From: Candidatus Omnitrophota bacterium
GTDB lineage: Bacteria; Omnitrophota; Gorgyraeia; Gygaellales; Profunditerraquicolaceae
Length of the DNA stretch: 64,000 bases
Assembly: GCA_050012075.1 (NCBI GenBank)
Contig: JBEKHW010000001.1
Coordinates: forward strand, 68,766 to 132,765
Direction of reading: 5' to 3'
Part shown: piece by piece, positions 11,908-56,262 of the stretch
How the letters are laid out: every line of letters starts with the position of its first letter
Position numbering within the stretch: position 1 is the stretch's first letter
The notes under the pieces: model-generated
Told to the model about the DNA's origin: nothing
Database searches by the model: none
What the model saw: the letters and a program-made list of their open reading frames with translations, nothing else
Position numbers and translations under genes: made by a program

Positions 11908-11916
11908 ATTCCTCCG

Positions 11917-11991: not shown

Positions 11992-11997
11992 TGATTT

Positions 11998-14900
11998 TTA
12001 GCCGTCAGATACCTCAATTAACTCGGCACCCTTAACAGGTTTTTTCTCCTGTAAAATCCTTTTGTATTCTAACGGCATGATTTTAATGAATTTCTTAAGC
12101 TTAGCCGTAAAATCATCAAGGATATCTTTGGCAATCCTGCTTTGCGTATATCGGTAATGGTTTTCCAGAAGCAGCCGTATCGTCTGGATATCTTCATCGT
12201 CGGCCTTCTCGAACGTAACCATCTCCATATTGCATTTCTTTTTGAAATTTCCGTTGATATCATAGACATAAGCAATGCCGCCGGACATACCCGCGGCGAA
12301 ATTCCTACCGGTCTCGCCCAATATTACCACTCTTCCGCCGGTCATATATTCACAGCCATGGTCGCCTACACCTTCTACCACCGCATATAAACCGGAATTC
12401 CGGATACAGAATCTTTCTCCGGCAACACCGCGTATATACGCCTCACCATTTATTGCTCCGTAGAAAGTGGTGTTCCCGATAATAATATTGCCTTCCAGAT
12501 TAGAATCCCTGGCAGGGTCGGGATAGATTATGATCTTGCCGCCGCTAGTCCCCTTACCTACATAATCATTAGCCATCCCGCTTAATTCAAAAGTTATGCC
12601 GCGGGCAAGCCACGCTCCAAAACTCTGGCCTGCCACACCCTTAAACTTAAAATGGATAGTATCTTCCCCTAATCCTTCTTCACCGAATTTACGGCAGAGC
12701 TCTCCGCTAAGCATCGCTCCGGTTGTACGGTTAGTATTATTGATTGCGACTTCCGCCTTTACCGGTGTAGCGTTATCAAGCGCGGGACGGGCGAGCGTCA
12801 TAAGTTTTAAATCCAATACCTTATCTATCCTGTGATTTTGCTTTATCGTACAATGGCTCATAATATCCTTGGATACCTCTGGTTTATAGAGCACCTTAGA
12901 AAAATCAATACCTTTTGCTTTCCAGCCAAGTATATCCTGGTTTAGCTCCAAGAGGTCGGTCCTGCCTACCATTTCATCCATTTTACGTATGCCAAGGCCG
13001 CTCATAATCTGGCGTAATTCCCGGGCTACAAAATTAAAATAATTAATAACATATTCTGGTTTACCGCTGAATCTTCTCTCCAGGATCTCATCCTGCGTAG
13101 CAATGCCCACAGAACAATTATTCAACTGGCAGTGCCGAAGCATCACGCATCCTAAAACAATTAAAACAGCAGTGCAAAAACCAAACTCCTCTGCACCCAG
13201 GATGCAGGCAATGGCTACATCGCGTCCCGTGCGCATCTGGCCGTCGGTTTGCAGGCGCACGCGGCTGCGCAAGTCATTTAAAACCAGCGTCTGATGAGTT
13301 TCGGATAGGCCTAACTCCCAAGGCAGGCCTGCATGTTTTATTGAACTTAGAGGAGAAGCTCCTGTGCCTCCATCACCGCCTGAAATAAGTATCATATCGG
13401 CATGGCCTTTAGCTACGCCGGCAGCGATTGTCCCTACGCCGATTTCCGAAACAAGTTTTACGCTGATACGCGCGGCAGGATTAGTATTTTTAAGGTCAAA
13501 TATCAATTGGGCAAGGTCTTCAATGGAATAAATATCGTGGTGTGGCGGAGGAGAAATGAGTGTCACCCCCGGAGTTGTGTAGCGTGTGCGGGCAATTATC
13601 GCGCTTACCTTATGCCCGGGAAGCTGCCCCCCTTCCCCTGGTTTTGCGCCCTGGGCTATTTTAATCTGTAATTCATCGGCGTTAATCAGATAATTAGTAG
13701 TTACGCCGAACCTGCCTGAGGCAACCTGTTTAATCGCGCTCCTTGCCGAATCCCCGTTTGGCAAGGGGCTAAAACGGCCGGGATCCTCACCGCCCTCTCC
13801 GGTATTGGATTTGGCTTTCAACCTATTCATGGCAATAGCGATGGTTTCATGTGTCGCTCTTGAGATAGAACCAAAACTCATAGCACCCGTGGCAAAACGC
13901 CTGACAATCTCCTCTGCGGATTCCACTTCCTCAAGGGGAATAGGATTTGCTTTCTTGAATTTTAACACTCCTCTTAATGTTGTAGGGTGGCTCGACTGGT
14001 CATTAATCAGGCGGATAAATTCCTCGTACCTCTTCTCATCATTATTACGCACGGCATCCTGTAGCGCTGCAATACTATCCGGATTCCAGAGGTGAAATTC
14101 TCCGTCTCTTTTCCATTGGTATAATCCGCCGGTAGTAAGGATCGGCTCATCTACTCTTTCAAATGCTTCCTTGTGCCTTATAATGGTCTCCCTGGCAATG
14201 GTTTCCAGGTTCACTCCGCCGATACGCGAAGGAGTCCCCGGAAAACATCTCTCAATTACTTCTTCTGCTATTCCTACTGCTTCAAATATCTGCGCGCCGC
14301 GATAACTCTGCAAAGTAGATATTCCCATCTTGGAGATTATCTTAAGTATCCCTTTTTCCACTGCTTTTATATAATTATGCAGGCCCTTCTCAAAATTAAA
14401 GCTGATCTCTCTATCTTCTGCCAAATATTTTACCGCCTCATAAGCAAGATAGGGATTAATGCAGTCCGCTCCATAACCAAAGAGAAGCGCAAAATGATGC
14501 ACCTCTCTGGGCTCTCCGGTCTCTAAAATCAGACTGATCTGCGTACGTAAAGCCTTACCTACCAGGTGATGGTGGACACTTGAGACAGCCAAGAGGCTCG
14601 GTAATGCTGCATGCGCCTTATCCACTCCCCGGTCACTTAAAATAATAAAGGTGTACCCCTCTTTGATTGCGGATTGCGCTTCTTTACAAATCCTGTCAAT
14701 TGCCTTCCTGAATCCATCTTTAATCGAGATATCAAACAGCGTAGAAATGGTTTTGGTCTTAAAGCCGTTTATTTTAATATCACGGATCTCTTCCAGCTTC
14801 TCATTGGTTAAAACCGGATGCTTAACCAGCAGTTTATGGCAATGTTCTGGTGTTTCATCCAGGATATTCTTCTCAGGGCCAAGGTAGGTTTCCAGGTTCA

Positions 14901-16572
14901 TCACCAGCTCTTCGCGGATATAGTCAATCGCCGGATTCGTAACCTGGGCGAACAACTGCTTAAAATAGGTAAATAACAACTGAGGCTTATCCGAAAGCAC
15001 GGCATGCGGCGTATCGTTACCCATCGAACCTACCGGCTCCTGGGCTGCCTCTACCATGGGCTTAATAATTACTTTCGGGTCCTCGCGGCTGTAACCGAAT
15101 GCCTTTAGCTGAGAAAGAATATCTGTTGACGTTATGCGTTCTGCGTTATGCGTTGTGCGCTTACTTACAGACAGGGCATCTAATTCAACTATATTACTTT
15201 TAAGCCATTTGCCGTAAGGCATACTTGTGGCCATCCTGCCCTTTATTTCTTCATCGGTAACAATGCGTTTTAATCCTGTATCAATAAAGAAAATTTTGCC
15301 GGGTTCAAGCCTTCCCGATAAAAGAATCTCTTCACCAGGCAAATCTAATACCCCCACTTCAGAGGCCATAACCACAAAACCTTTCTTAGTGACAATGTAA
15401 CGGGCAGGCCGAAGGCCATTCCTGTCAAGGAGTGCTCCGATACGCTCTCCGTCTGTAAAAGCAATGGCAGCAGGACCGTCCCAGGGTTCCATAAAACAGG
15501 CATGGTACCTGTAGAAACTGCGCACCTTGTCATCGAGAAAACTATTCTGCTCCCATGCCGGAGGTATAAGCATCATCATGGCATGCTCAAGAGGCCTACC
15601 GGAAAGGACAAGCAGCTCAAGGACATTATCAATGGTCGCGGAATCGCTTCCTCCCGGAACAATAACCGGATAAAGCTTCTTAAGAGCGGAGCCGAAGAGT
15701 TTACTTTTTAACAGGCCTTCGCGGGCGCGCATCCAATTGATATTCCCCCTCAACGTATTGATCTCTCCATTATGCGCAAGGAACCTGAATGGCTGCGAAA
15801 GGTCCCAGGTAGGAAAAGTATTGGTAGAGTAACGCGAATGCACAAGACAAAGAGAGCTTTTTATATTTTTGTCTTTTAGGTCAGGGAAAAACTTATCTAC
15901 CTGGTCAGGCATAAGCAGGCCTTTATATGAGAATGTACGGCTGGAAAGATTAGTGATATAAAAGAATGATTTCTGCTTTAATCCAGATGCGCGGATAGTG
16001 TTCTCTACCCTCTTCCTGATAATATAGAGCTTTCTCTCAAAATCAAGATTACCTTCACTTGTGACTTTGTGACTTTGTGACTTTGTGACTTTTTTAGCGA
16101 TAAATATCTGCTCTATGGCGGGCTGGGTGTCTCTGGCGGTCTTACCTATATCAGTATCATCCACAGGCACGGCTCGCCACCCCAATAATAGCTGGCCTTC
16201 TTTTTTTACAATACCTTTAAAGATATCCTTGCAGGATTGGCGCTCCTTGGTATCAGTAGGCAGGAATATAAGCCCTGCGCCATACTCCCCCAGAGAAGGC
16301 AAAATAATTTTTTCTTCTTTACATACCTTTTCGAAAAATTCATGGGGGATCTGCAATAACACCCCTGCCCCATCTCCTGTTTTAGGATCTGAACCCGTAG
16401 CGCCCCGGTGGGAAAGCCGCTTTAAAACCTCTAACCCCTGTAAGATAATCTGATTTGTCTTTTTACCGTCTATATTGCAGACAAAGCCAACCCCGCAGGA
16501 ATCATGTTCAAAACCGGGGTCATATAATCCTTGTTTTTCAGGAAAACCGTGTCTTTTCATCTTATCTTCCAT
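11998..16572 (-). CDS. gltB: Glutamate synthase large subunit
   Basis: 1524 aa. N-terminal amidotransferase Cys (CGVGF), FMN/Fe-S central domain, and C-terminal GXGXG beta-helix. Contains an in-frame AAAGTCAC octamer tandem repeat at 16061-16092. Confidence 0.95.
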   Translation of the reverse strand: MEDKMKRHGFPEKQGLYDPGFEHDSCGVGFVCNIDGKKTNQIILQGLEVLKRLSHRGATGSDPKTGDGAGVLLQIPHEFFEKVCKEEKIILPSLGEYGAGLIFLPTDTKERQSCKDIFKGIVKKEGQLLLGWRAVPVDDTDIGKTARDTQPAIEQIFIAKKVTKSQSHKVTSEGNLDFERKLYIIRKRVENTIRASGLKQKSFFYITNLSSRTFSYKGLLMPDQVDKFFPDLKDKNIKSSLCLVHSRYSTNTFPTWDLSQPFRFLAHNGEINTLRGNINWMRAREGLLKSKLFGSALKKLYPVIVPGGSDSATIDNVLELLVLSGRPLEHAMMMLIPPAWEQNSFLDDKVRSFYRYHACFMEPWDGPAAIAFTDGERIGALLDRNGLRPARYIVTKKGFVVMASEVGVLDLPGEEILLSGRLEPGKIFFIDTGLKRIVTDEEIKGRMATSMPYGKWLKSNIVELDALSVSKRTTHNAERITSTDILSQLKAFGYSREDPKVIIKPMVEAAQEPVGSMGNDTPHAVLSDKPQLLFTYFKQLFAQVTNPAIDYIREELVMNLETYLGPEKNILDETPEHCHKLLVKHPVLTNEKLEEIRDIKINGFKTKTISTLFDISIKDGFRKAIDRICKEAQSAIKEGYTFIILSDRGVDKAHAALPSLLAVSSVHHHLVGKALRTQISLILETGEPREVHHFALLFGYGADCINPYLAYEAVKYLAEDREISFNFEKGLHNYIKAVEKGILKIISKMGISTLQSYRGAQIFEAVGIAEEVIERCFPGTPSRIGGVNLETIARETIIRHKEAFERVDEPILTTGGLYQWKRDGEFHLWNPDSIAALQDAVRNNDEKRYEEFIRLINDQSSHPTTLRGVLKFKKANPIPLEEVESAEEIVRRFATGAMSFGSISRATHETIAIAMNRLKAKSNTGEGGEDPGRFSPLPNGDSARSAIKQVASGRFGVTTNYLINADELQIKIAQGAKPGEGGQLPGHKVSAIIARTRYTTPGVTLISPPPHHDIYSIEDLAQLIFDLKNTNPAARISVKLVSEIGVGTIAAGVAKGHADMILISGGDGGTGASPLSSIKHAGLPWELGLSETHQTLVLNDLRSRVRLQTDGQMRTGRDVAIACILGAEEFGFCTAVLIVLGCVMLRHCQLNNCSVGIATQDEILERRFSGKPEYVINYFNFVARELRQIMSGLGIRKMDEMVGRTDLLELNQDILGWKAKGIDFSKVLYKPEVSKDIMSHCTIKQNHRIDKVLDLKLMTLARPALDNATPVKAEVAINNTNRTTGAMLSGELCRKFGEEGLGEDTIHFKFKGVAGQSFGAWLARGITFELSGMANDYVGKGTSGGKIIIYPDPARDSNLEGNIIIGNTTFYGAINGEAYIRGVAGERFCIRNSGLYAVVEGVGDHGCEYMTGGRVVILGETGRNFAAGMSGGIAYVYDINGNFKKKCNMEMVTFEKADDEDIQTIRLLLENHYRYTQSRIAKDILDDFTAKLKKFIKIMPLEYKRILQEKKPVKGAELIEVSDG
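16061..16092. repeat. Tandem octamer (GTGACTTT)x4 inside the gltB coding sequence
   Basis: Encodes KVTKSQSHKVT in GltB. The same octamer is dispersed at three other loci. Confidence 0.8.
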
Positions 16573-16937: not shown

Positions 16938-17164
16938 ATTTTATGCGGTTAGTGCCTATTGCTTAAGCACGGCCAGACAAAAAAAATTAAGTGAGGACAT
17001 AAGTTATGGAACAAGCTATTGCTTATCTAAACGACATAACTTATATGTCCGAATTAACCCCACACCCAGCCAACAAGCTACATAGCTATGGTTTTCTGGG
17101 TGTGGGGTTAATTCGCGCAAATAACTTACTCTCCGCCTACGGCGGATCGTAAGTTATGCGCTCA

Positions 17165-21529: not shown

Positions 21530-21549
21530 ATTAGCCCCCTTTTATCATG

Positions 21550-21577
21550 GTGACTTTGTGACCTGTGACTTTGTGAC
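21550..21577. repeat. GTGACTTTGTGAC-ct-GTGACTTTGTGAC element between amt and glnK (copy 1)
   Basis: Lies in the 52-nt amt-glnK spacer, directly upstream of the glnK ribosome-binding site. Confidence 0.8.
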
Positions 21578-21581
21578 ATCT

Positions 21582-22868
21582 TTATTCAAGTACCGTATAC
21601 GCCCTCTCCCTGTGCTGCGTAAGATCAAGCCCCATGGCTTCTTCTTTTTCGCTGACGCGTATCCTGAAAAATATATCCACAAATTTATATATAATATAGG
21701 TAACAACAAAGGTGTAAGCTACCGCTGCTACAACCCCGATTAACTGTATCAAAAACTGCCGGGGATTACCGGCAAATAAACCATTTGCCCCTGCGGCATT
21801 TATTGCTTTGGAGGCAAATAACCCTGTAGCCAGAGTTCCCAGGATTCCTCCTAAACCATGCACCCCAAAAGCGTCCAGGGAATCATCATAACCGAACTTG
21901 GGCTTGATAACGGCGACCCCGATAAAACACAAGATGCTTGCAAAGACCCCTATTATTAACGCTGAGGAAGGACTAATAAAACCCGAGGCAGGAGTAACCG
22001 TAGCCAGGCCTGCGATAGAACCGGTGACAGCGCCAAACATTGTGGGTTTTCCGTTACGGACCCATTCCAGAAGCGCCCAGGTCAACCCTGCTGCCGCTGC
22101 CGCTGCGTTAGTCGCCACAAATGCACTGACTGCTAGGCCATTTGCCGCTAAAGCGCTACCGGCATTAAAACCAAACCAACCAAACCATAGTAAAGCTGTT
22201 CCCAAGGCTACGAAAGGAAGGTTGTGCGGGACAGGAGTATTGTGCTCCAGGTTCTTTCTTTTGCCGATAGCCAGGGCTACAACTAAAGCAGCAATACCTG
22301 CGCTCGTATGCACTACAATTCCTCCTGCAAAATCAAGGACACCTAAATTCCTTAACCAGCCACCCATTCCCCAAACCCAGTGGCAAAGCGGGTCATAGAC
22401 AAAAGTAGCCCATAGAATGCTAAAAACCAGAAACGCCGAAAATTTCATCCTTTCCGCAAAAGCACCAATAATTAATGCCGGTGTGATTATCGCAAACATC
22501 GCCTGAAAAATCATGAATGCCTGATGAGGGATAGTAGCGCTGTAGCCGCTAAAAGGCTCAATGCCGACCCCATTTAAACCAAACCAACTCAGGCCTCCCC
22601 AGAAACCTTTGCTCGGAGCAAAAGAAAGGCTGTAACCAAAAAGCATCCAATGTACTGTCAATAAACATAATATCACAAAACACTGCATTAGGATACTTAG
22701 GATATTCTTCCTTCTGACCATGCCTCCATAGAAAAATGCCAACCCCGGAGTCATCAACATCACAAAGGCCGTAGAGATTAAAACAAACGCCGTGTCTGCC
22801 CCATTAATCATATTGCCTCCTTCACAGCAGTGAACACTTGCCTCGATAAAACAAGGTGTTCCTTGCAC
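21582..22868 (-). CDS. amt: Ammonium transporter (copy 1)
   Basis: 428 aa, 11-TM Amt/MEP family. C-terminus is EAMGLDLTQHRERAY. Confidence 0.9.
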   Translation of the reverse strand: MQGTPCFIEASVHCCEGGNMINGADTAFVLISTAFVMLMTPGLAFFYGGMVRRKNILSILMQCFVILCLLTVHWMLFGYSLSFAPSKGFWGGLSWFGLNGVGIEPFSGYSATIPHQAFMIFQAMFAIITPALIIGAFAERMKFSAFLVFSILWATFVYDPLCHWVWGMGGWLRNLGVLDFAGGIVVHTSAGIAALVVALAIGKRKNLEHNTPVPHNLPFVALGTALLWFGWFGFNAGSALAANGLAVSAFVATNAAAAAAGLTWALLEWVRNGKPTMFGAVTGSIAGLATVTPASGFISPSSALIIGVFASILCFIGVAVIKPKFGYDDSLDAFGVHGLGGILGTLATGLFASKAINAAGANGLFAGNPRQFLIQLIGVVAAVAYTFVVTYIIYKFVDIFFRIRVSEKEEAMGLDLTQHRERAYTVLE

Positions 22869-23397: not shown

Positions 23398-23417
23398 ATT
23401 AGCCCCCTTTTATCATG

Positions 23418-23430
23418 GTGACTTTGTGAC
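23418..23430. repeat. Single GTGACTTTGTGAC unit between amt and glnK (copy 2)
   Basis: Same position as in copy 1, but a single unit. Confidence 0.75.
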
Positions 23431-23434
23431 ATCT

Positions 23435-24718
23435 TTATTCAAGTACAGTATACGCCCTCTCTCTATGCTGCGTAAGGTCAAGTCCCATGGCTTCTTCTTT
23501 TTCGTTGACGCGTATGCCGATAAATACATCCACCAGTTTATAGATTATAGCTGTTACTGCCAGAGAGTAAATTAGCGTGACCGCCACGGCAGTTAACTGC
23601 ACCAGGAATTGCTTTGGGTTGCCAAAGAAAAGCCCGTCTCCACCCGCAGCATTTACGCTCTTCGAAGCAAAAAGCCCGGTAGCTAATGCGCCCCATATAC
23701 CGCCTACACAGTGCACGCCAAATGCGTCCAGGGAATCGTCATAACCGAACTTGGGCTTGATAATACTGACGGCAGTAAAACAGAAGACACTTACCAGCAA
23801 TCCTATAATAATCGCCGGAATTACGCTCACAAACCCGGCTGCGGGAGTGATGGCTACGAGGCCCGCTACTGCTCCTGAAGCTGCGCCGAAAATGGTAGGT
23901 TTGCCGTTACGAATCCATTCAATTATTGCCCAGCTTAACCCGGCGCTAGCTGCTGCGGTATTGGTAACCACAAAAGCATTCACTGCCAGGCCATTTGCCG
24001 CTAAAGCACTGCCGGCATTAAAACCAAACCAGCCAAACCAGAGAAGACCTGTGCCCAAGATTACAAAAGGCATATTGTGCGGTGCAGGAACATCTTTTTC
24101 TATATTCCTCCTCTTGCCGATAAATAATGCTGTTACCAACGCAGCAATACCCGCATTTATGTGTACTACGGTGCCGCCGGCAAAATCAAGAGCGCCCATC
24201 TGTCTTAAGAACCCGCCGACCCCCCAGACCCAGTGACAAACAGGGTCATATACAAATGTCGCCCACAGGAGCACAAAAGCAACAAATGCGGAAAACTTCA
24301 TTCTCTCTGCAAATGCACCCAGTATTAATGCCGGTGTGATTATCGCAAACATCGCCTGAAAAATCATAAATGCCTGATGCGGGATTGTACCTGCGTAATC
24401 CGCATACGGCCCAAAACCTACTCCCTTTAACCCAAGCCAGCCAAAGCCGCCCCAAAATCCAGTCGAAGGCGCAAAAGAAAGGCTATAGCCATATAAAACC
24501 CACTGCACACTTATGACACACATTATTATGAAACACTGCATAAGTATGCTTAGGATGTTCTTCTTCCTGACCATGCCGCCATAGAAGAATGCCAGCCCCG
24601 GGGTCATCAGCATAACCAGGGCCGAAGAAATCAAAACCCATGCCGTATCACCTGCATTAATCATTTCTACCCTCCCTTGCCCACAAAGGGCACACTTGCG
24701 CAATACCGATAAGCGCAA
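23435..24718 (-). CDS. amt: Ammonium transporter (copy 2)
   Basis: 427 aa. Paralog of 21582..22868. Confidence 0.9.
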   Translation of the reverse strand: MRLSVLRKCALCGQGRVEMINAGDTAWVLISSALVMLMTPGLAFFYGGMVRKKNILSILMQCFIIMCVISVQWVLYGYSLSFAPSTGFWGGFGWLGLKGVGFGPYADYAGTIPHQAFMIFQAMFAIITPALILGAFAERMKFSAFVAFVLLWATFVYDPVCHWVWGVGGFLRQMGALDFAGGTVVHINAGIAALVTALFIGKRRNIEKDVPAPHNMPFVILGTGLLWFGWFGFNAGSALAANGLAVNAFVVTNTAAASAGLSWAIIEWIRNGKPTIFGAASGAVAGLVAITPAAGFVSVIPAIIIGLLVSVFCFTAVSIIKPKFGYDDSLDAFGVHCVGGIWGALATGLFASKSVNAAGGDGLFFGNPKQFLVQLTAVAVTLIYSLAVTAIIYKLVDVFIGIRVNEKEEAMGLDLTQHRERAYTVLE

Positions 24719-24720
24719 GG
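24681..24720. repeat. Inverted copy of the ATCGG-loop hairpin plus a ccc/ggg mini-hairpin immediately upstream of amt copy 2
   Basis: cccacaaagggcacacttgcgcaataccgataagcgcaaggtgt is the reverse complement of 25741-25785 with a few changes. Confidence 0.6.
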
Positions 24721-24724
24721 TGTA

Positions 24725-24904
24725 TTAATTAATCCCTAGTTTCTCCCTGACTAACTTCGCGTAAACTTTGTTTATACGTTTGGTCTTCAACCATCTCTCT
24801 ATGGTAGTAACCTGAATATCAAGCTTCTTGGATAAATCGTAAAGGGTATAGCTTCTTTCTTCTTTTAAGATTAAAAGTCTTCTAATCAATTCTAGGTCTA
24901 CCAT
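24725..24904 (-). CDS. Unannotated 59-aa helix-turn-helix protein (excisionase/AlpA-like or sigma-region-4-like small DNA binder)
   Basis: My own translation is MVDLELIRRLLILKEERSYTLYDLSKKLDIQVTTIERWLKTKRINKVYAKLVREKLGIN. Its start overlaps the stop of the upstream OMP gene as TAATG. It is absent from the ORF track because it is shorter than 60 aa. Confidence 0.45.
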   Translation of the reverse strand: MVDLELIRRLLILKEERSYTLYDLSKKLDIQVTTIERWLKTKRINKVYAKLVREKLGIN

Positions 24905-25722
24905 TAGAAATCCAGATCCAATTGAAAGGTTATCGTATCTTTCGCATTAGGATTATTATAGATGTCGTAAGCAATGATAGCGGAAACATTGCTGGTGAAT
25001 TTCCAGGAGAAACCGAAGTTAAGCGCTCCGTATGAAGACTGGGTTCCCTGATAATCAGCGCATATCCACAACCTGTCTGATATCTCGGTCATCACCCTTT
25101 CCCAGGCAATCATAGGGCCGGCATTATCACGCTCGCCGTTTTTATCACGCAATAACCTGGCGCTGCCGTTGAAATAGCCGGCTGAGAAACGGCCCAGGCT
25201 AAGCTTACCTATATATAAGCTCTTTGCAACCCTGAGATACCAGATATTATTACCGGTAACGTCGTGTTTTGTGCCGATATCATAACCGCCTATGGCAAAA
25301 GCAGGCATAAACTTAAAATAAGCATCCTCGGGAACTCCGAATTTAAAATGAAAATACCATGGATAGGTGTCGGCTGCGGGGCCAAACCCTTTTTTATAGT
25401 CAAAACCGGTTTCCGCCATGATTTTTCCTAAAGGAGACCATAACTTGCCTAAAAGGTTATTTTCGGGCTTATCAGAAAGAAGGCTGAAGGTCGGTCCGTA
25501 AACCTGCTGGACATAAAGTTGGTTATCATTATGGTCCCTGCTTTTAACAGGAGTATAATTATCCACATTTAAATGTATCTTTCCGTAAGGTTGAATATCG
25601 GTTGAGGGAGTCCAGATAAGAGTAGTAGGCGTAGCAAAAGCAATATTTGCGCATATGCTAAAAATACAAAAAATTCCCGTCAAAATCAGGCAGTTCTTAA
25701 ACAGGCGTGTTTCTAGTTGCAT
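24904..25722 (-). CDS. Outer-membrane beta-barrel (porin-like) protein
   Basis: 272 aa. Signal peptide, alternating beta-strand pattern, and a C-terminal ...LDLDF ending in Phe. Confidence 0.5.
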   Translation of the reverse strand: MQLETRLFKNCLILTGIFCIFSICANIAFATPTTLIWTPSTDIQPYGKIHLNVDNYTPVKSRDHNDNQLYVQQVYGPTFSLLSDKPENNLLGKLWSPLGKIMAETGFDYKKGFGPAADTYPWYFHFKFGVPEDAYFKFMPAFAIGGYDIGTKHDVTGNNIWYLRVAKSLYIGKLSLGRFSAGYFNGSARLLRDKNGERDNAGPMIAWERVMTEISDRLWICADYQGTQSSYGALNFGFSWKFTSNVSAIIAYDIYNNPNAKDTITFQLDLDF

Positions 25723-25740
25723 TATCTCCTCTTCGTCTTA

Positions 25741-25924
25741 CACCTTGCGCTTATCGGTATTGCGCAAGTGTTCCCTCGTGGGAAAAATAAGGCGCCTTAC
25801 TAAATCCATCCCTTGGATTAATAAGACGCCTGCGTCTTAATAACTGTTTAAACACCCCAACATATCGGAATGTTGGGTGTGCCCTTACTGGGCTAACACC
25901 CGGCCATAGCGGATTGGCCGGTGT
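25741..25924. repeat. Array of three related hairpins (acacc-stem-loop containing ATCGG/AGCGG-stem-ggtgt) in the leader region of the OMP gene
   Basis: Hairpins at 25741-25772, 25855-25885 and 25896-25924. Stems differ with compensatory changes; loops are conserved. Confidence 0.6.
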
Positions 25925-25936
25925 GCCCTTTGTGGG

Positions 25937-25967
25937 CAAAAAAAGACGTTCTTCTTTAAGAACGTCT
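25937..25967 (-). terminator. Rho-independent terminator after the sigma-factor gene
   Basis: Minus strand: agacgttcttaaagaagaacgtct + ttttttt. Confidence 0.65.
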
Positions 25968-26031
25968 ATGTACCACTTCGCGACAATGCGCTTTCACTAC
26001 TACAAGTAAAGAACTTACTGCTTTGGTAACC

Positions 26032-26553
26032 TCAATCCAAATATTTTCTGCACTTTTCTCGTATCTCTTTCGTCAATTTCACTACCCGCACATGAGATAT
26101 AGATAAGCGGCTGCCGATTTCCCTGGTAGTAAGGCCTTCGGCGTAGAAACGTAAAATCTGTTTTTCCCTGGTAGTAAGGCCGTTATTCAGGATGGTTTCG
26201 GCGACCAGCCTATCATCAAGCTTGCGCAGGTAGCTAGCGTGACCGCCTTCTTCCGACTCCAATATATCGCTCAATTTTAAATCAATTTCCGGGTTAACAA
26301 ACTCATCCAAACTTACAGTGTTCCTGCGAATTTTCTGCAGCCGGATATAATTCTTCATATGGAAATAGCACCCCTGCAAAATATAGCTGTCTGTTTTATC
26401 GGATAATTTACCGCTATTATGATCCTGCCAAAGGCGGACCAGGGCTTCCTGATAAAGGTCGTCAGCGTTAAAAAAGGTAAAATTACCCTTAATCCGGTAA
26501 GTTATCCTTTTTAAGGTAGGGGATATTTTCTTTACTAACTCTTCAAATTGCAT
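26032..26553 (-). CDS. Sigma-70 family (ECF-like) RNA polymerase sigma factor
   Basis: Region-2-like DDLYQEALVRLW and a region-4 HTH (LTTREKQILRFYAEGLTTREIG). The ORF-track start at 26640 is probably an upstream extension; the internal Met (MQFEEL...) is the likelier start. Confidence 0.6.
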   Translation of the reverse strand: MQFEELVKKISPTLKRITYRIKGNFTFFNADDLYQEALVRLWQDHNSGKLSDKTDSYILQGCYFHMKNYIRLQKIRRNTVSLDEFVNPEIDLKLSDILESEEGGHASYLRKLDDRLVAETILNNGLTTREKQILRFYAEGLTTREIGSRLSISHVRVVKLTKEIREKCRKYLD

Positions 26554-28425: not shown

Positions 28426-29175
28426 TTAAGATTTTTTGGCTTTTATATCTTTGGCCAGGATTATCGCTTCGGCAATCTCGCGCATGGATTTACGCGTATC
28501 CATACTTTGTTTCTGGATAAGCCGATATGCCTCGGAAGGAAGAATATTTGCTTCCTGGGATAATATATCCTTTGCCCGTTCTACAAGCTTACGGGTAGTC
28601 AATGCCTCTTCGGCGCTGCGCGCCCTCAAATCAAGCTCCGCGTTCTCAATGGCAATTGCCGCCTGGTTAGCCAGGGCAGTAAGGACATCTATTTCATGCT
28701 TGGAGAATTTATGTTTTTTGGAAGTATAGCAGTTAAGGACCCCGATTACCCTTCCTTTTACTGACATAGGGACACTGGCCAGCGAGCATAGCCCTTCTTT
28801 TTTGGCGATATCCTGGTTAAGGTAACGGCTATCACCCTTAACATCCTCTACTACAATCGGCCTATTCTCTTTTGCTACGATCCCCGCGATCCCGACCCCC
28901 ATCTTTATATTCGGCTTCTTATTGTATGCCTCTGAGATTGACTGCGTGGCCTTTACCACTAATTCCTGTTTATCCGGGTCAAGCAGTAGGAGGGAGGATA
29001 TTTTGGAATTCATCACTTCCGCGGTAACCTGCACAACCAGGCGCAGGAGTTCCTCCAGGTACAGGCCGCTGGTGATAAGGTTGGCTATCTTGGAAAGCGC
29101 TTCTATCTGTTTTACATAAAGGTCGTAATGTTCTTTCTTCTTCTGAACCATGTTATCTGCCCCTGCTGTTGACAA
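28426..29175 (-). CDS. GAF-ANTAR domain regulator (putative RNA-binding antiterminator)
   Basis: 249 aa. Central GAF-like region. The C-terminal ANTAR-like helix is TTRKLVERAKDILSQEANILPSEAYRLIQKQSMDTRKSMREIAEAIILAK. Confidence 0.65.
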   Translation of the reverse strand: MSTAGADNMVQKKKEHYDLYVKQIEALSKIANLITSGLYLEELLRLVVQVTAEVMNSKISSLLLLDPDKQELVVKATQSISEAYNKKPNIKMGVGIAGIVAKENRPIVVEDVKGDSRYLNQDIAKKEGLCSLASVPMSVKGRVIGVLNCYTSKKHKFSKHEIDVLTALANQAAIAIENAELDLRARSAEEALTTRKLVERAKDILSQEANILPSEAYRLIQKQSMDTRKSMREIAEAIILAKDIKAKKS

Positions 29176-33783: not shown

Positions 33784-34532
33784 ATTAGTCCTCCCCTATA
33801 TTGATACTGCGTGTTTTTTTTTGAGTTTTTCTTCCCGCCGCAGGCATTGACGCAGACCCCGCAGATATACTGGTCAACCAGCCGCTGCTTCTGGAATTCC
33901 TTTAATTTTTCAAGACATTTAATGCGATCGAAATCCGGAGGGTTTTCTTTAATTGCTCCTGCAGGACACATTATAACACAACTCCTGCAATTTCCACAAT
34001 TTTCTTTTGTGGGACTATCCAATCTTAACGGCATATCGGTAAGAATAGTGCTTAGGCGAAATTGGCTGCCGAGATTCTTATTAACCAGCAGGTTATTCCT
34101 GCCAATCCAACCAAGGCCCGCAAGCTCTCCGATTTTCTTATGCGAAAGGTGGCCTGTCTGCTTCTGCCAATCCACGATCTGGCTTGCCGGAATGGGCAAT
34201 GCCAGAAATCCTTTCTGCTGGATAAAATTCGCGACTTTAAGGGTCAGCTGGTCCAAAAGCGCGTTTGCAGTCTTATAGTGGTAGAAGTACAGCTTGGTGG
34301 GGGCATTTTCAATTTCTTCGAGGACGCTGGAGGACAACCTGACACCTAAACTTATTGCTTTATCAAATTTATCCAGGACTTTTTTGGCTAACGCAAAGTC
34401 ATTCTTTATCTCTTTTATACCGGCGACGCCGAACAATTCTACCCCTGAATTTACCGCTAATTTCCTTAAGGCAAGGTAATTTTTATTTAGCCCTGTGACT
34501 TTGTGACGTGGTGACTTTGTGGCCCTACTCAT
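33693..34532 (-). CDS. 4Fe-4S di-cluster protein, QueG-like (epoxyqueuosine-reductase family?)
   Basis: Two ferredoxin-like Cys motifs (CGNCRSCVIMCP and CGVCVNACG). The N-terminus is encoded by the GTGACTTT repeat block, so the true start is uncertain. Confidence 0.45.
   Translation of the reverse strand: MSRATKSPRHKVTGLNKNYLALRKLAVNSGVELFGVAGIKEIKNDFALAKKVLDKFDKAISLGVRLSSSVLEEIENAPTKLYFYHYKTANALLDQLTLKVANFIQQKGFLALPIPASQIVDWQKQTGHLSHKKIGELAGLGWIGRNNLLVNKNLGSQFRLSTILTDMPLRLDSPTKENCGNCRSCVIMCPAGAIKENPPDFDRIKCLEKLKEFQKQRLVDQYICGVCVNACGGKKNSKKNTQYQYRGGLICFSDFYLKTVIFSTFLINKLILLLMPLST
34495..34522. repeat. GTGACTTTGTGAC-gtg-GTGACTTTGTGg element at the mnmG / QueG-like junction
   Basis: Same family as the other three loci. 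Confidence 0.75.
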
Positions 34533-36411
34533 TATTTGCCTTCCTAAGATATATCATCAATATGGAAACCGCGGCAGGAGTTACTCCGGAAATGCGCGAT
34601 GCCTGGCCAAGGTTTATCGGCTTAAATTTATCCAGCTTTTCTTTTATCTCGCGGGAAAGTCCGTTTATGGAAACGTAATTTAGGTCTCCTGGTATCCGTA
34701 TCTTCTCCAGGTTCCTGAACCGCTCTACATCCTTATATTGCCTCTGTATAAACCCGGAATATTTTACTTCAATTTCTACCTGTGGCAAAGCTAATTCTGG
34801 TATATTTATCCCTACCTGTCGCAACCCTTTTAATGTCTGGATATTAACCTGCGGCCGCTTAAGAAGCTCTTCCAGAGTTGCACTTTTATTTAGAAGAGAA
34901 GAATTTACCCCGGCAAGCATCGAATTCAATTCCTGGTCCGGCTTTATCCTTGTTTTCTTCAAGAATGCTATCCCTGTTTCTATGGCGCGGATTTTTTCTT
35001 CTGTCTTGCGGTATTCATCGTGGCTGACTAAACCTATATCCACGCCTATCCTGCGTAACCTCGTATCCGCGTTATCCTGGCGCAAAATCAGGCGGTATTC
35101 TACTCGCGAGGTAAACATCCGGTACGGCTCATTCGTGCCTTTAGTGGTCAGGTCATCTATAAGCACTCCGATATAGCTGTTAGAACGTTCCAGTATCAAC
35201 GACCCTTTACCTTTTATCCGTAATGCCGCATTAATTCCTGCAACCAAACCCTGGGCCGCTGCTTCTTCGTAACCGGTGGTTCCGTTAATCTGGCCGGCAA
35301 AATACAGGTTCCTGATTAATTTTGTTTCTAATGTAGGATACAACTGGGTCGGCTCAGCTACGGTATGCTCTATGCCGTATCCAAAAGTAATTGCCCTTGC
35401 CTTCTCCAGCCCCTCAATAGAATGTATCATCTCTAATTGCACTTCTTCGGGAAGGCTTGTCGATAAACCGTTGGGATAAACGCGTTCCGTATCAAGCCCC
35501 TGTGGCTCAAGGAATATCTGATGCCTTTCTCTGTCGGAGAATTTTACTACTTTATCTTCTATAGAAGGGCAGTACCTGACCCCCGTGGCTTTAATTATGC
35601 CGGTATATAGCGGAGACTTATCCAGATTATCAAGGATAATTTTATGGGTATTTTTATTGGTATAAGTAATGTGGCAGGGGACCTGCTTGCGCGTTATCTT
35701 CTCAGTTGAAAAAGAGAACGGCGTGGGGCAAGGATCTCCTTCCTGGATTTTAAGCCGGCTGTAATCAATGGAATCCTTATCTAGCCTGGCACAGGTACCG
35801 GTCTTAAAACGCATTAATCTAAACCTAAGCTCCTTTAGATTATTTGCCAGGCAGATACTTGCCGGTTCATTGATGCGCCCTGCGCTTTTATGTTTTAGGC
35901 CCACGTGTATCAGGCCGTCAAGGAATGTCCCCGGACACAGGACTATAGAATCGGTAAGAATTTCTTCCCCCTTTTCGGTAATTAGCCCCTTTATGGTATT
36001 GTTTTCGACAATCAGTTTCTGTACCTCGGCCTCTTTTATAAACAGACCTTCCTGGCCGGCGACCAGCTCTTTCATATAATTATTATACCTGTACATGTCT
36101 ATTTGAGCCCGCAGGGATTGCACTGCCGGCCCCTTGGAGGCATTAAGCATGCGGAATTGGATAGCGCAGGAATCAGCGGCGACTCCCATTACCCCGCCAA
36201 GGGCATCGACCTCTTTTACCAACTGGGCCTTGCCTACCCCGCCAATAGCGGGATTACAACTCATTAATCCTATATTTTCGCGCTTAAGCGTGATTAACAG
36301 GGTCCTGCAATGCATGCGGCTTGTGGCAATTGCCGCTTCAATACCGGCATGCCCTGCCCCGATGACCACCACATCATACTTTTCCATAAGCAACTTAGGG
36401 ACGGTTCTCAA
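34525..36411 (-). CDS. mnmG: tRNA uridine 5-carboxymethylaminomethyl modification enzyme
   Basis: 628 aa. FAD motif VVVIGAGHAGIEAA. The first 9 codons come from a REP element; the likely true start is MEKYDVVV near 36384. Confidence 0.9.
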   Translation of the reverse strand: MRTVPKLLMEKYDVVVIGAGHAGIEAAIATSRMHCRTLLITLKRENIGLMSCNPAIGGVGKAQLVKEVDALGGVMGVAADSCAIQFRMLNASKGPAVQSLRAQIDMYRYNNYMKELVAGQEGLFIKEAEVQKLIVENNTIKGLITEKGEEILTDSIVLCPGTFLDGLIHVGLKHKSAGRINEPASICLANNLKELRFRLMRFKTGTCARLDKDSIDYSRLKIQEGDPCPTPFSFSTEKITRKQVPCHITYTNKNTHKIILDNLDKSPLYTGIIKATGVRYCPSIEDKVVKFSDRERHQIFLEPQGLDTERVYPNGLSTSLPEEVQLEMIHSIEGLEKARAITFGYGIEHTVAEPTQLYPTLETKLIRNLYFAGQINGTTGYEEAAAQGLVAGINAALRIKGKGSLILERSNSYIGVLIDDLTTKGTNEPYRMFTSRVEYRLILRQDNADTRLRRIGVDIGLVSHDEYRKTEEKIRAIETGIAFLKKTRIKPDQELNSMLAGVNSSLLNKSATLEELLKRPQVNIQTLKGLRQVGINIPELALPQVEIEVKYSGFIQRQYKDVERFRNLEKIRIPGDLNYVSINGLSREIKEKLDKFKPINLGQASRISGVTPAAVSILMIYLRKANNE

Positions 36412-37006
36412 TCCAAAGCGAAAAGTGTCCCTTTTTAGTGTTAGAAAATTGTGTTTTAAACGTCTAGTATAGTTGGAGGTGACAGATATGCCAAGAACAG
36501 CAAGGCTTACTATTAAAAACGGATGTTACCATGTTATCACAAGAGGGAATCAAAAACAATCGGTTTTTGGAGATACGCGGGACTACGAAAAATATCTACA
36601 ATTTTTAGTTAGATACAGAAAACGTTATAAGTTCAGACTGTATTGTTTTTGCTTCATGCCAAACCACGTGCACCTTGTTATCGAAGTGAATGATCCCCAG
36701 AATTTGGAAAAGATTATGCGGGGAATAAACCTAAGTTACACACTCTATTTTAATTTTAAATACAAAAAGGTAGGGCATCTCTGGCAGGATAGATTTATGA
36801 GTAAAATTCTATATAAAGATAAATACCTGTTAGATTGTATAAACTACATTGAAACAAATCCTGTTAGGGCTAACTTAGTGAATAATATCACTGAATATCT
36901 ATGGAGTAGCTATAAGCTACGCTTAACTCAAAAACAAAACATTCTAGATATACCTGAAATCTGAATTTCTGGGGACACTTCTCCGATTGAATTAAGAACC
37001 GTCCCT
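36397..37006 (+). mobile_element. REPtron: RAYT gene flanked by inverted REP copies
   Basis: Left REP at 36397-36432 (agggacggttctcaatccaaagcgaaaagtgtccct). Right REP at 36971-37006 is its reverse complement (ggggacacttctccgattgaattaagaaccgtccct). Confidence 0.7.
36473..36964 (+). CDS. REP-associated tyrosine transposase (RAYT; IS200/IS605-like Y1 transposase)
   Basis: 163 aa. HuH motif NHVHLVI and a downstream Tyr region. It is flanked by inverted REP copies. It is the only convincing plus-strand gene. Confidence 0.75.
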   Translation: MEVTDMPRTARLTIKNGCYHVITRGNQKQSVFGDTRDYEKYLQFLVRYRKRYKFRLYCFCFMPNHVHLVIEVNDPQNLEKIMRGINLSYTLYFNFKYKKVGHLWQDRFMSKILYKDKYLLDCINYIETNPVRANLVNNITEYLWSSYKLRLTQKQNILDIPEI

Positions 37007-37009
37007 AGG

Positions 37010-37336
37010 TTATGAAAAGGAAAGGCCTGTATTATCAGGAGGGATATAGATTTTACTATCTTCGCCGAAGTCCAACCCGTGCTGCCAGAGGCCGTTATTA
37101 ATTTCTTTGGACCAAACCACAGTTGCTTGCTTAGAGAGGTTTTCCCGGGATATAAAAGGCGCGCTAATAACCAGGTTAATCTTCTGGTTAATGGCCAGGG
37201 CCATATGCGAAAGAATCCCTGCGCCCCGCGCGCTTAAGTCCTTCAAAATAGAGGATTGTTCCGTGCCTTCGGGTGCGGATAGGAAACAGGAACGGTTTAC
37301 CTTAAAACGGTTATATGACCTTCTATAAGCTGGCAT
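37010..37336 (-). CDS. PilZ domain protein
   Basis: 108 aa. RRSYNR (RxxxR) and DLSARGAG (DxSxxG) motifs. Confidence 0.55.
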   Translation of the reverse strand: MPAYRRSYNRFKVNRSCFLSAPEGTEQSSILKDLSARGAGILSHMALAINQKINLVISAPFISRENLSKQATVVWSKEINNGLWQHGLDFGEDSKIYIPPDNTGLSFS

Positions 37337-54514: not shown

Positions 54515-54741
54515 CTTTCCTATCCTTTCTTTTAATGGGGAATGGGATATATGAGGACGAATTACCTTAAAAACGAATACTAAAATGTAACATATATTTA
54601 CTTTTAGGTCAAGATTTTTTTGCCTACATTGGCATCTACCTGGCGCTAATCGGAATTGCGCCAGTATTGCCCTCGTGGGCAAACCCACGCAAGGCGTAAC
54701 TTCTTCACTCTCTTACCTATATGTGTATAGATAATCCTGCA

Positions 54742-55467: not shown

Positions 55468-56262
55468 TTAACTAATGCCTGTCCACCACTGTTTTCTTAG
55501 CTCCTTCGGGAAATTGCTCTCAACATAATCATAGATCCTGGTTTTATATGCGTCATTGAGGTCGTGAAAGCGCAGCCCATAACAGCAATCCTGTTCGCCA
55601 TCCTGGCTCCAGGCAACAGACGCCTCTGTCCGAAAACCCAAACCGTCTGCCAGATCCACCCTTATCCTTGATAATGCTTCGGGAAATACCTTCCGGGGCA
55701 AAAACACACGCATCCCCTCGGTGCTTATATCCCTGACCGTACACGGCATCCCCCTGCCGCACTCTTGATCAAGCATGATCTGTGCCGGTTGATTCACTTC
55801 CCATCTCACCATCTTCCTGCGCTCATCCATCTTATTCTCACCTCCCTTCCCCGCTAGGGGACACCCGCGCAATTTCCCCACAGAGGGGACACCGGCGCAA
55901 TTCAAATAAGCGCCGGGTGCATGCATCGCACGAGGTGCTATTGTTTTCCCGTGGCTTTTCTGTACTAACTGGCGATTAATTAATTTAGACGCAGCTGTAA
56001 ATAAAATGGGCAACTCTCGTGCGGAAAGATACGGGGCAAGATGACGCGTTAAGGCATCACTTTTAGATGGGGTGTTGTCTGGAAGTTTTTCAAAATCCGC
56101 TCTTACCTGCAACATCTTTCCTCGTGTTGGCTTCCGGTGTTCTTGCGTAACAGAAACTTCTTGCTTCCCCAAAGGAGAAAATAAGTCTCTGCGCCTTCCG
56201 TGGCTAGATCGCAGGCTGCTATTGTTACCCATTATTATATCCCAAGTTACGTAAAATATCAT
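55468..56262 (-). CDS. PilZ-domain protein (PilZ at the C-terminus; N-terminal start uncertain)
   Basis: ERRKMVRWEV ... VRDISTEGMRVFLP. Confidence 0.5.
   Translation of the reverse strand: MIFYVTWDIIMGNNSSLRSSHGRRRDLFSPLGKQEVSVTQEHRKPTRGKMLQVRADFEKLPDNTPSKSDALTRHLAPYLSARELPILFTAASKLINRQLVQKSHGKTIAPRAMHAPGAYLNCAGVPSVGKLRGCPLAGKGGENKMDERRKMVRWEVNQPAQIMLDQECGRGMPCTVRDISTEGMRVFLPRKVFPEALSRIRVDLADGLGFRTEASVAWSQDGEQDCCYGLRFHDLNDAYKTRIYDYVESNFPKELRKQWWTGIS

Follow-up and report, generated by a model that had tools for sequence, protein, structure and literature searches.

A family of short intergenic hairpin repeats in Candidatus Omnitrophota that may represent a new type of REP-like element

Introduction

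The nitrogen-assimilation gene cluster of a Candidatus Omnitrophota MAG contains, in several of its leaders, hairpins that closely resemble each other. The question that this locus raises is whether such hairpins act in the mRNA, mark the ends of a cassette or are copies of a dispersed repeat. We analyzed a 64-kb stretch of DNA from this genome, which is referred to below as the window. In its initial annotation five hairpins were described, one inverted pair was seen as bracketing a module of two genes and a likeness to the targets of ANTAR regulators was suggested.

Most of what is known about small dispersed palindromic repeats comes from Proteobacteria, and Omnitrophota is, to our knowledge, a phylum without well-studied cultured members. 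In our literature search no paper was found that connects REP, RAYT or similar repeats with Omnitrophota.

Results

The window was searched with covariance models on both strands with the filters off. The five hairpins that were noted earlier are all present as described, each with the order acacc-stem-loop-stem-ggtgt-gCCC..GGGc on one strand (units A to E; Table 1), but the span 54662-54682 that was given for unit E covers only its 3' part. The models added two units (F and G) and a half-unit. The six full copies gave E-values of 1e-9 to 5e-14 and unit G gave 0.008-0.014, while folding z-scores ranged from -3.0 to -4.5 among the full units but reached only -1.4 in unit G. Beyond these seven units and the half-unit no credible match was found on either strand of the 64 kb, a broader, rebuilt model (R2) gave no additional copies, and extending the contig by 5.3 kb leftward added none. 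All copies in the window are intergenic. Rfam gave no match at the gathering threshold over the whole window, and at E up to 10 the region 24600-26050 gave no more than noise, for instance fragments of Pistol and RydC. No unit is followed by a T-run in either orientation, and the terminator scan lists only the neighboring true terminators.

Table 1. Hairpin units in the window and the features that surround them.
Feature	Position	Strand	Remarks
Unit G	22820..22859	-	degenerate; sense; immediately 5' of amt1 Shine-Dalgarno (gtgaAG-GAGG-N4-ATG)
Unit A	24677..24723	-	sense to genes; loop ttATCGGtatt; fills gap between HTH stop codon (24725) and amt2 Shine-Dalgarno; 3' junction gggcAA-GGGAGGG-N5-ATG (amt2 start 24664)
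Unit B	25740..25785	+	antisense to genes; on gene strand directly 3' of second leader terminator T-run (aaggcgcctt-attttt); 10 nt upstream of porin-like gene's Shine-Dalgarno
Unit C	25852..25895	+	antisense; tandem with D; hexaloop ATCGGA
Unit D	25896..25939	+	antisense; on gene strand begins right after first leader terminator T-run
Porin-HTH-amt2 operon leader	25937..26030	-	context, outside the repeat family
Leader terminator stem with T-run	25967-25944	-	overlaps P2
Leader hairpin P2	25973-25960	-	GTAC-ATAGAC-GTTC
Leader hairpin P1	25990-25979	-	CGC-ATTGTC-GCG
Leader box	26030-26001	-	GTTACCA-N17-ACTTGTA
GAF-ANTAR gene	28426-29175		nitrogen-assimilation cluster
RAYT gene	36473-36964		Y1_Tnp, E 7e-17
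Unit E	54636..54682	+	antisense; PilZ gene end (54742) on one side, promoter-like TTGACC-17-TACATT of solute-binding-protein gene on the other
Compound nested element	55847..55938	-	sense to genes; MFE -48.6 kcal/mol, z -4.5; outer unit: 5' arm 55938-55928, 3' arm and mini-hairpin 55870-55847; followed by aaGGGAGG-N9-ATG (55830) of 120-aa PilZ gene
Unit F (inner, complete)	55874-55920	-	within loop of outer unit; own loop ttatttgaatt

The repeat unit is ~45 nt long and has two parts. The first is a 10-11 bp hairpin that reads ACAC, a bulged C, a variable inner stem of 5-7 bp, a loop with the core A-N-N-G-G-N and a 3' arm ending with GGTGT; the second is a 4-bp mini-hairpin, typically GCCC-TTTGT-GGGC, which is followed by AA. 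Compensating stem changes had been proposed from the window copies and they hold in an alignment of 17 units from the window and other genomes, in which 9 of the 14 pairs are changed on both sides, 93.7% of the cells are paired and the stem pairing is not matched by any of 500 shuffles. About 24 of 29 units have the loop core, whose positions 2, 3 and 6 vary. Only unit C has a clean hexaloop; the loop of D is 8 nt and those of A, B, E and F are 11 nt. Among the units tabulated, GGA is the usual loop reading, with GGT in about a third of the loops. The conserved loop and bulge, together with the covarying stems, indicate selection on structure. The A1/G4G5 loop pattern is retained in 10 of 11 antisense units and likewise in the sense units, which speaks for the element, and not the mRNA, as the target of selection.

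Exact 18-mer scans, with a probe that carries no flank information and is biased toward one mini-hairpin variant, found the unit in at least 7 species-level Omnitrophota genomes and in several metagenome contigs. True units make up about 7 of the 28 matches in genomes and 9 of the 57 in metagenomes. Most matches are coding sequences for a G-V-P-F-V-G peptide, and the four matches in viral contigs are all unrelated. The true matches are all sense, with AGGAG and a start codon within 1-2 nt.

From the window and all fetched loci (the latter numbered L below) we compiled the flanks of 37 units in 26 arrays, and two settings are seen. Eighteen arrays are sense and lie between a stop codon and a Shine-Dalgarno (SD), where they end with GGGC-AA directly before GGAG-ATG. 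The other eight are antisense and abut the T-runs of terminators. In the window four of the seven units (B, C, D, and E) are antisense to every gene, as had been remarked of the plus-strand copies, which oppose the minus-strand genes. Units are single, in tandem or nested in the loop of another unit, and about half of the arrays have at least two hairpins while the other half have a single large one. The window shares the loop position at which nesting takes place with L030, L028, L007, L052, and L015. The genes downstream are unrelated to each other, and among them are those for a solute-binding protein, a RodZ-like protein, rpsC, purB, an aminotransferase, cysE, and DoxX. The density is ~1 unit per 13 kb, calculated from about 18 units in roughly 240 kb scanned (64 kb and 5 kb of the window genome, with stretches of up to 21 kb from relatives).

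Occupancy varies at orthologous sites. The site upstream of amt is occupied in the window and empty in L087, L089, L091, and L095, and the amt-glnK gap is occupied in L087 and L088 only. Behind the first leader terminator, antisense units number two in the window and one in L094; L096 carries a sense unit there and L089 a remnant, and L095 is empty. The scanned stretches of L089, L091, L093, and L100 contain no units.

Discussion

On balance we lean toward the explanation that the hairpins are a REP-like family of short, dispersed intergenic repeats of Omnitrophota that were probably copied from place to place. We count recent copying in its favor: the 32-nt hairpins of A and B are identical, although their mini-hairpins differ, and the tandem units of L081 are identical to each other. 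The enrichment of the window copies in leaders, where several of them cluster at nitrogen genes, counts against it. So do the modest density of the units, the hairpins of another family around the window's Y1 transposase and flanks that show no insertion scars. REPs typically have about 100 or more copies per genome.

The likeness is greatest to the REP, BIME, and REPIN elements of Enterobacteria and Pseudomonas, which are mobilized by RAYTs. As in these, the Omnitrophota units are short, G+C-rich, imperfect extragenic palindromes that are dispersed in both orientations and often clustered, with covarying stems, variable occupancy at orthologous sites among relatives and intercistronic copies a few nt from stop codons. 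E. coli REPs near stop codons stabilize the mRNA that precedes them and can influence how the upstream gene is translated. Unlike a REP, the Omnitrophota unit is bipartite, with a long bulged-C hairpin and a mini-hairpin, it abuts the SD or the terminator T-run with 0-2 nt precision, and its arrays are direct tandem or nested and not the alternating or inverted doublets of BIMEs and REPINs. It also has no end tag of the GTAG or CGTC class (PMC3733652), since its ends read ACACC... and ...GGGCAA.

The window genome itself runs a REP system. Its RAYT gene, which encodes the sole Y1 transposase of the window, has another hairpin family, GGGACGGTTCTC, on its flanks. The same family flanks the RAYT in L096 and L100, and because of this the two-hairpin repeat was rejected as the cognate REP of this RAYT. 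A search with tblastn found no second RAYT in any fetched locus. We read the two-hairpin family as a new type of REP-like element, distinct from the REP of the window's RAYT gene. Some copies of the GGGACGGTTCTC family carry (G)TAGGGAC.

Neisseria Correia elements, pneumococcal BOX/RUP, and Rickettsia palindromic elements are, similarly, small non-autonomous repeats that lie near genes and are transcribed, and within transcripts they can alter mRNA processing or expression. Their length is at least 100-150 bp, and they have terminal inverted repeats (TIR) and target duplications (TSD; TA for Correia). The Omnitrophota unit differs from them, and from a MITE, by its 45-nt size and by having no discernible TIR or TSD: its flanks show no target-site duplication, with a 3' side that is only A-rich, and there are no inverted termini other than the hairpin itself. 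An overview of such small dispersed hairpin repeats is given in PMC2229807.

What is unusual in this repeat is the very precise landing, either as stop codon-unit-SD or as terminator T-run-unit, the nesting in loops of other copies and the strand-specific loop and bulge that are kept while the stems covary. If the repeat is mobile, it points to a hairpin-recognizing copying system with an A-run target. By the mechanism that we infer, its enzyme would place new copies directly on the 5' side of a run that is rich in A or in purines, as read on the strand of the element itself. When this run is the AAGGAG of an SD, sense copies that fill the stop-to-SD gap would result; an A-run complementary to the T-tract of a terminator would give antisense copies right after terminators; and the AATT side of another copy's loop would give nested units. 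Propagation may be limited to copies that still form the recognized hairpin on one DNA strand, and the stems would then covary around a fixed loop and bulge because only hairpin-forming copies propagate. The sense copies would leave an autonomous, stable hairpin pair ending 1-2 nt before the SD. Like intercistronic REPs, such a pair plausibly stabilizes the neighboring cistrons or insulates them.

Another explanation, which we regard as rather unlikely, is that the unit is not a mobile element but a host RNA module, a leader or intercistronic hairpin with a mini-hairpin clamp directly 5' of the SD. Such a module would set mRNA stability, processing or translation initiation and would be spread by selection and gene conversion, with the antisense copies as by-products. 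It would fit the sense orientation of all real 18-mer matches, directly before AGGAG and a start codon, but that exact search favors one mini-hairpin variant. A 24-nt module, GGTGTGCCCTTTGTGGGCAAGGAG, is identical at about 10 loci of different genomes despite the varying stems, and distinct genomes also share GGTGT-GCCCTTTGTGGGC-AAGGAG without a change. In sense copies the G.U pairs suggest a preference for the transcribed strand (15 vs 7), and those of antisense copies (3 vs 2) are uninformative. The identity of the SD-joined sequence and this strand bias hint at an RNA-level host function and not a purely selfish spread, and if the repeat is active in RNA it is a reusable leader module. The mini-hairpin CCCUU may also pair, alternatively, with the AAGGG of the SD in some leaders. 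Yet the predicted accessibility of the SD is inconsistent: over 18 sense leaders P(unpaired) averages 0.58 and runs from 0.19 to 0.91. Further against a host module, 8 of the 26 arrays are antisense and still keep the strand-specific loop and bulge, the orthologous sites in close relatives are empty, filled or inverted, and nested insertions into loops are common.

It is more doubtful that the hairpins are sites for an RNA-binding regulator that ties many genes into one post-transcriptional regulon, whether a GAF-ANTAR protein that reads A1/G4 hexaloops or a CsrA-like protein that reads one GGA in the loop and one in the SD. The loops of ANTAR targets carry A as their first and G as their fourth nucleotide (Ramesh et al., 2012, PMC3369931), and the core A-N-N-G-G-N matches this rule, but the pattern is kept equally in antisense copies. 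As with the dual-hairpin RNAs of EutV, NasR, and AmiR, there are tandem hairpins in addition to the A1/G4 core, at least two in about half of the arrays; the GAF-ANTAR gene of the nitrogen-assimilation cluster is 2.5 kb away, and the P2 loops of the putative ANTAR leaders read ANNGGC, which resembles the loop core. The suggestion nevertheless fails on strand, stem, spacer, terminator and regulon. Wrong-strand copies are many, stems are 10-11 bp, loops are mostly 8-11 nt and half of the arrays, including units A and G, are single hairpins. C-D, the sole tandem pair of the window, lies on the plus strand without a plus-strand gene downstream, and its stems are separated by a 15-nt spacer that folds into the mini-hairpin, vs a linker of 5-12 nt between the hairpins of the E. 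faecalis eut leaders, where a 3- or 14-nt linker abolished induction of a eutP reporter (PMC3369931). No unit overlaps a terminator or a start codon, and a gap of 1-2 nt separates the unit from the SD. The cluster does encode a GAF-ANTAR protein, but the genes downstream of units elsewhere (rpsC, purB, cysE) are unrelated to nitrogen metabolism, and L093 has the ANTAR gene and P1/P2 leaders with no unit in 21 kb. For a CsrA-like protein, many loops have GGA and a second GGA is found in the SD 25-30 nt downstream; the third of loops with GGT argues against CsrA. We therefore rejected the hairpins as regulator-binding ANTAR sites. The ANTAR-type sites seem to adjoin the units on the other strand, where hexaloop hairpins that overlap terminators are found at 25990-25937 of the minus strand, just upstream of D and C on the gene strand.

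Improbable as well is a transposable riboregulator, a mobile hairpin with an ANTAR-type (A1/G4) or other protein-binding loop, in which CCCUU of the mini-hairpin and AAGGG of the SD would form a toggle and which, by landing 1-2 nt upstream of SDs, would wire arbitrary genes into an Omnitrophota post-transcriptional regulon.

We give very little weight to the option of a mobile or invertible cassette that has A and B as its terminal inverted repeats. The two units indeed flank exactly the 59-aa HTH and the 272-aa porin-like genes, as a 38-nt inverted repeat that is 97% complementary with 1014 nt between, but the idea that they bracket a module was not borne out. In the relatives compared so far both genes are in place: orthologues of the porin-like gene (61-65% identity) and of the HTH gene (68-81%) are at the same position of the nitrogen cluster in L087, L089, L091, L094, and L095, without the flanking units. 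The A/B pair defines no cassette because these genes are conserved members of the nitrogen cluster. A and B differ in their mini-hairpins, and each follows the context rule of the family, with B inserted behind a leader terminator and A in front of the amt SD. A Logan unitig that carries both genes ends inside repeats A and B, which is expected because any repeat longer than the assembler k-mer has this effect. In practice such repeats break assemblies and can be mistaken for regulatory RNAs.

Coincidental terminator-like palindromes can practically be dismissed, since the hairpins, which are G+C-rich, intergenic and in several cases next to true terminators, have no T-run of their own, recur in more copies with E-values down to 5e-14 and share the bulge, loop and mini-hairpin across many genomes. 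A sigma-54 promoter in the reverse-complemented units (GGCAC..GC) was also considered and dropped, as the spacing is wrong by eye.

The leader next to the repeats, and not the repeat itself, is reminiscent of the GnfR-type ANTAR antitermination of nitrogen genes in Geobacter (PMC2995071). As there, an ANTAR regulator is encoded in a nitrogen cluster and terminators are found in the leaders of amt, glnK, glnA, and GS genes, with small hairpins before them. In the window such leader terminators are at 25967-25938, 22949-22900 and about 18756-18706. Unlike in the GnfR system, the sensor here is a GAF domain instead of a receiver, and 15-30 nt separate P1 from P2 in the putative ANTAR leaders. Telling the repeats apart from these adjoining ANTAR-type attenuators clarifies the probable control of the nitrogen cluster.

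The repeat unit and its distribution

The five hairpins claimed in the initial annotation are a real family, and that observation is confirmed and extended: all five are present, and a sixth full copy (F), a 3' half-unit and a degenerate copy (G) were added. As unit strand we took the one reading acacc-stem-loop-stem-ggtgt-gCCC..GGGc. In covariance-model searches of the window, scores are 46-66 bits (E 1e-9 to 5e-14) for the six full copies and 17-18 bits for G; no other match in the 64 kb is credible, on both strands and with filters off. Each full unit folds as predicted (z -3.0 to -3.8), and for G the z value is -1.4, with 21 of 200 shuffles at least as stable. The stretch 55938-55847 is predicted to fold as one unit within the loop of another (-48.6 kcal/mol, z -4.5).

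Seventeen units, drawn from the window and from other genomes, were aligned. The consensus runs ACAC, one bulged C, a variable inner stem of 5-7 bp, a 6-11 nt loop whose core is A-N-N-G-G-N, a 3' arm that ends GGTGT, a 4-bp mini-hairpin (mostly GCCC-TTTGT-GGGC) and AA. In this structure 93.7% of cells are paired and 9 of the 14 pairs are altered on both sides; 0 of 500 shuffles matched these values, and slid controls fall to 30-46% paired. This bears out the compensating stem changes that had been claimed.

The amt2 protein is 100% identical to one attributed to a Candidatus Omnitrophota MAG, and more than 100 relatives at 84-91% identity likewise carry the label Omnitrophota or Omnitrophica. 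A scan of 185,579 species genomes with an 18-mer that was taken from the unit's 3' part and carries no information on the downstream flank gave 28 matches against ~17 expected by chance; seven are real units, hosted by Omnitrophota MAGs or by MAGs labelled uncultured Planctomycetales with near-identical genes. The metagenome scan added about nine real units (seven distinct once duplicates are removed), many other matches being coding sequence for G-V-P-F-V-G. The 18-mer found no units in viral contigs, and nothing comparable was found in Rfam.

Features of the window by position and strand
Feature	Position	Strand	Remark
Unit A	24677-24723	-	seen in sequence
Unit B	25740-25785	+	seen in sequence
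Unit C	25852-25895	+	seen in sequence
Unit D	25896-25939	+	seen in sequence
Unit E	54636-54682	+	seen in sequence
Unit F	55874-55920	-	motif scan and two covariance models
3' half-unit	55847-55870	-	motif scan and two covariance models
Degenerate unit G	22820-22859	-	motif scan and two covariance models
Leader	26030-25937	-	box, P1, P2, terminator
Leader	23030-22900	-	box, P1, P2, terminator
Leader	about 18850-18706	-	box, P1, P2, terminator
Second attenuator-like element	25846-25786	-	porin or PII leader
Operator-like palindrome	22893-22864	-	
GAF-ANTAR gene	28426-29175		
RAYT gene	36473-36964	+	Y1 (IS200-like), E 7e-17; sole plus-strand gene
Second-family hairpins	36392-36431, 36972-37011		inverted, flanking RAYT
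Second-family hairpins	11918-11992, 47626-47701, 52211-52286		other copies
PilZ-domain genes	54742-55461, 55468-55830, 37010-37336		
8-nt tandem repeats	16052-16095, 21541-21565, 23409-23433, 34486-34529		
Heptamer tandem repeats	48968-49012, 51302-51332		ACTATGA / ACTATCA
Long imperfect palindrome	17037-17128		38-nt arms

Placement and variation between genomes

The flanks of all 37 units were tabulated. Eighteen arrays have the unit in sense orientation to the gene beside it: the final unit closes with ...GGGC-AA, and GGAG(G), a gap of 5-9 nt and the start codon come immediately after. If a gene can be seen upstream, 0-8 nt separate its stop codon from the first unit, and therefore the unit is the entire intercistronic spacer. 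Such are unit A, which separates the HTH stop from the amt2 start, unit G, 5' of amt1, and the nested F element, 5' of a PilZ gene. Eight arrays are antisense to the genes, and here the T-run of an intrinsic terminator leads straight into the unit. Of the window examples, D and C come behind the terminator 25967-25944, which belongs to one of the leaders described below, B comes behind aaggcgcctt-attttt, and E, though antisense, has no clear terminator ahead of it. In nested arrays (the window F element and the sequences L030, L028, L007, L052 and L015) the host loop holds the inner unit between its GG and its AATT. Seen on the strand of the element, the 3' flank invariably reads AA and then purines or A's, a rule that nested units obey as well. 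Of the three PilZ-domain genes in the window, two adjoin units and one adjoins the REP flanking the RAYT gene.

Orthologous nitrogen clusters of relatives were scanned with the covariance model. The site 5' of amt is filled in the window and is empty or different in L087, L089, L091 and L095, and the amt-glnK gap is filled in L087 and L088 and is empty or different in all others. After the first leader terminator there are two antisense units in the window, one antisense in L094 and one sense in L096, with L095 empty and a remnant in L089. The 21-kb loci without any unit include L089 and L093, and L094 has six. Genes 3' of sense arrays, from unbiased scans, are mutually unrelated: ABC solute-binding protein, RodZ-like protein, ribosomal protein S3, adenylosuccinate lyase, aminotransferase, serine acetyltransferase, DoxX and small proteins. 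The unit-bearing genes are not one regulon and unit positions are not conserved in place. The hairpins of A and B are identical over 32 nt, with different mini-hairpins, and the tandem copies in the sequence L081 are identical, which indicates that units were probably copied recently.

We favour, with moderate confidence, the reading that the family is a dispersed two-hairpin element, probably of the copy-and-paste kind. Such an element may target the 5' side of runs rich in A or in purines, which would explain the Shine-Dalgarno (SD), terminator and loop contexts together with the orientation rule. Selection that keeps the hairpin recognisable on one DNA strand is proposed as the cause of covarying stems with a fixed bulge and loop. 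It is plausible that sense copies also act at the RNA level, where they may stabilise or insulate adjacent cistrons; G.U bias is 15 vs 7, and predicted SD accessibility is mixed.

One other option is that the unit is a leader module of the host; the sense arrays next to SD sequences would suit it, the eight antisense arrays would not, and we consider it unlikely. A protein-binding riboregulator is more doubtful still. One form of it is the earlier proposal of ANTAR-like loops. ANTAR targets are two short stem-loops in a leader, with hexaloops carrying A1 and G4, a linker of 5-12 nt (induction is abolished at 3 or 14 nt) and a second hairpin in competition with a terminator (PMC3369931; Ramesh et al., 2012). 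The core A-N-N-G-G-N does fit A1/G4, but as ANTAR targets the units fail on strand, linker, terminator overlap and regulon coherence, and in loop size only C, with a clean hexaloop, would suit. Of 11 antisense units, in which the mRNA would carry the complement, 10 retain the core, so the loop constraint would seem to act on the element's strand rather than on the transcript.

The A/B bracket

The inverted pair A/B exists as a 38-nt inverted repeat (97% complementary) around the 59-aa HTH and 272-aa porin-like genes; its reading as the bracket of a HTH + OMP module did not hold up. Orthologues of the porin-like protein (61-65% identity; L095, L087/L088, L091) and of the HTH protein (68-81%; L095, L089/L090, L094) keep their position in the cluster order sigma-like gene, porin, [amt-PII], HTH, amt, PII, and no units flank them in those relatives. 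B was inserted between a T-run and the porin SD, at a place left empty in L087 and L095, and A stands in place of a ~90-nt spacer that L095 retains. The bracket thus arises by coincidence, from two placements, and a cassette bounded by A and B, for which the inverted arrangement would speak, is very improbable. Weakest is the view that the hairpins are chance products, which can practically be dismissed.

In L094 (6946-9757) and L095 (6842-9909) an extra amt-PII pair separates the porin and HTH genes; the window lacks it, through either deletion there or gain in the relatives. In the window the porin stop and HTH start overlap by one base at 24904. The porin and HTH genes are both on L086, a 1074-nt Logan unitig of SRR7028477 that begins within repeat B and stops within repeat A, a case of these repeats fragmenting short-k assemblies.

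Putative ANTAR-type leaders of the nitrogen genes

A recurrent gene-strand leader lies upstream of amt, glnK, glnA, GSIII and the porin gene, in the window and in L087-L096. It consists of a box (GTTACCA-N17-ACTTGTA), hairpin P1, (G)CAC-ANNGNN-GTG(C), a 15-30 nt spacer, hairpin P2, GAAC-ANNGGC-GTTC, and an intrinsic terminator, GGCGTTCA...TGAACGCC + T-run, which uses the 3' half of P2 as its 5' arm. P1 is 98% paired, 2 of its 4 pairs being compensatory, and its loop has A1 in 12/15 and G4 in 15/15; P2 is 85% paired with little covariation and G4 in 15/15. The GAF-ANTAR gene is conserved in the same cluster. By their sequences, these putative leaders look like ANTAR-type antitermination of the five genes, and the ANTAR protein more likely binds them than the repeat units. 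They have the antiterminator/terminator design of known ANTAR regulators, including GnfR in the nitrogen control of Geobacter (PMC2995071), but with longer P1-P2 spacing.

The second attenuator-like element has two mutually exclusive hairpins, taagacgc-ag-gcgtctta and the longer ggcgtctta...taaggcgcc + T-run; the element is conserved in four relatives (L087 8739, L089 5887, L094 6609, L095 6747). An operator-like palindrome, TTTACACA(A/G)TTG(G/T)TTAACCA(A/G)TTGTG, lies between leader terminator and amt SD in the window, in L095 (~9940-9965 and ~11730-11760) and in L089 (~9945-9975); in the window the insertion of unit G separates the palindrome from the SD.

The RAYT gene and other short repeats

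Eight copies of the second hairpin family, GGGACGGTTCTC...GAGAACCGTCCC, occur in the window; they are mostly doublets and begin AGGGAC/GGGAC (GTAGGGAC in one copy), with the full GTAG tag only at 11914. The same RAYT gene (66-71% identity), with the same flanking hairpins, occurs in the genomes L096 and L100 at the shared site gidA / RAYT / phosphomutase-RNR. To judge from these features, gene and hairpins are a classical REP-RAYT pair in Omnitrophota; we found no paper connecting this phylum with REP- or RAYT-type repeats. The first family was rejected as the REP of this RAYT, which is flanked by the other family, and never by the first, in all three genomes. The first family resembles REPs in behaviour but fails two defining REP features: it does not flank the RAYT gene, and its units carry no GTAG or CGTC tag. 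Its arrays are direct or nested.

The tandem 8-nt repeats, TGTGACTT (GTCACAAA on the gene strand), lie in three of four cases at intercistronic junctions (amt-glnK twice, gidA-next gene), directly 5' of the start codon and with no evident Shine-Dalgarno; the copy at 16052-16095 has no placeable junction and lies inside the listed 11998-16572 ORF. The long imperfect palindrome, ccccacacccag...ctgggtgtgggg, has a similar counterpart upstream of amt in L091 (~440-510) and L092. Heptamer repeats, which in L089 read CTATAGA / CTATCGA (~11260-11320), are another short-period class in a similar position, at gene junctions just 5' of start codons.
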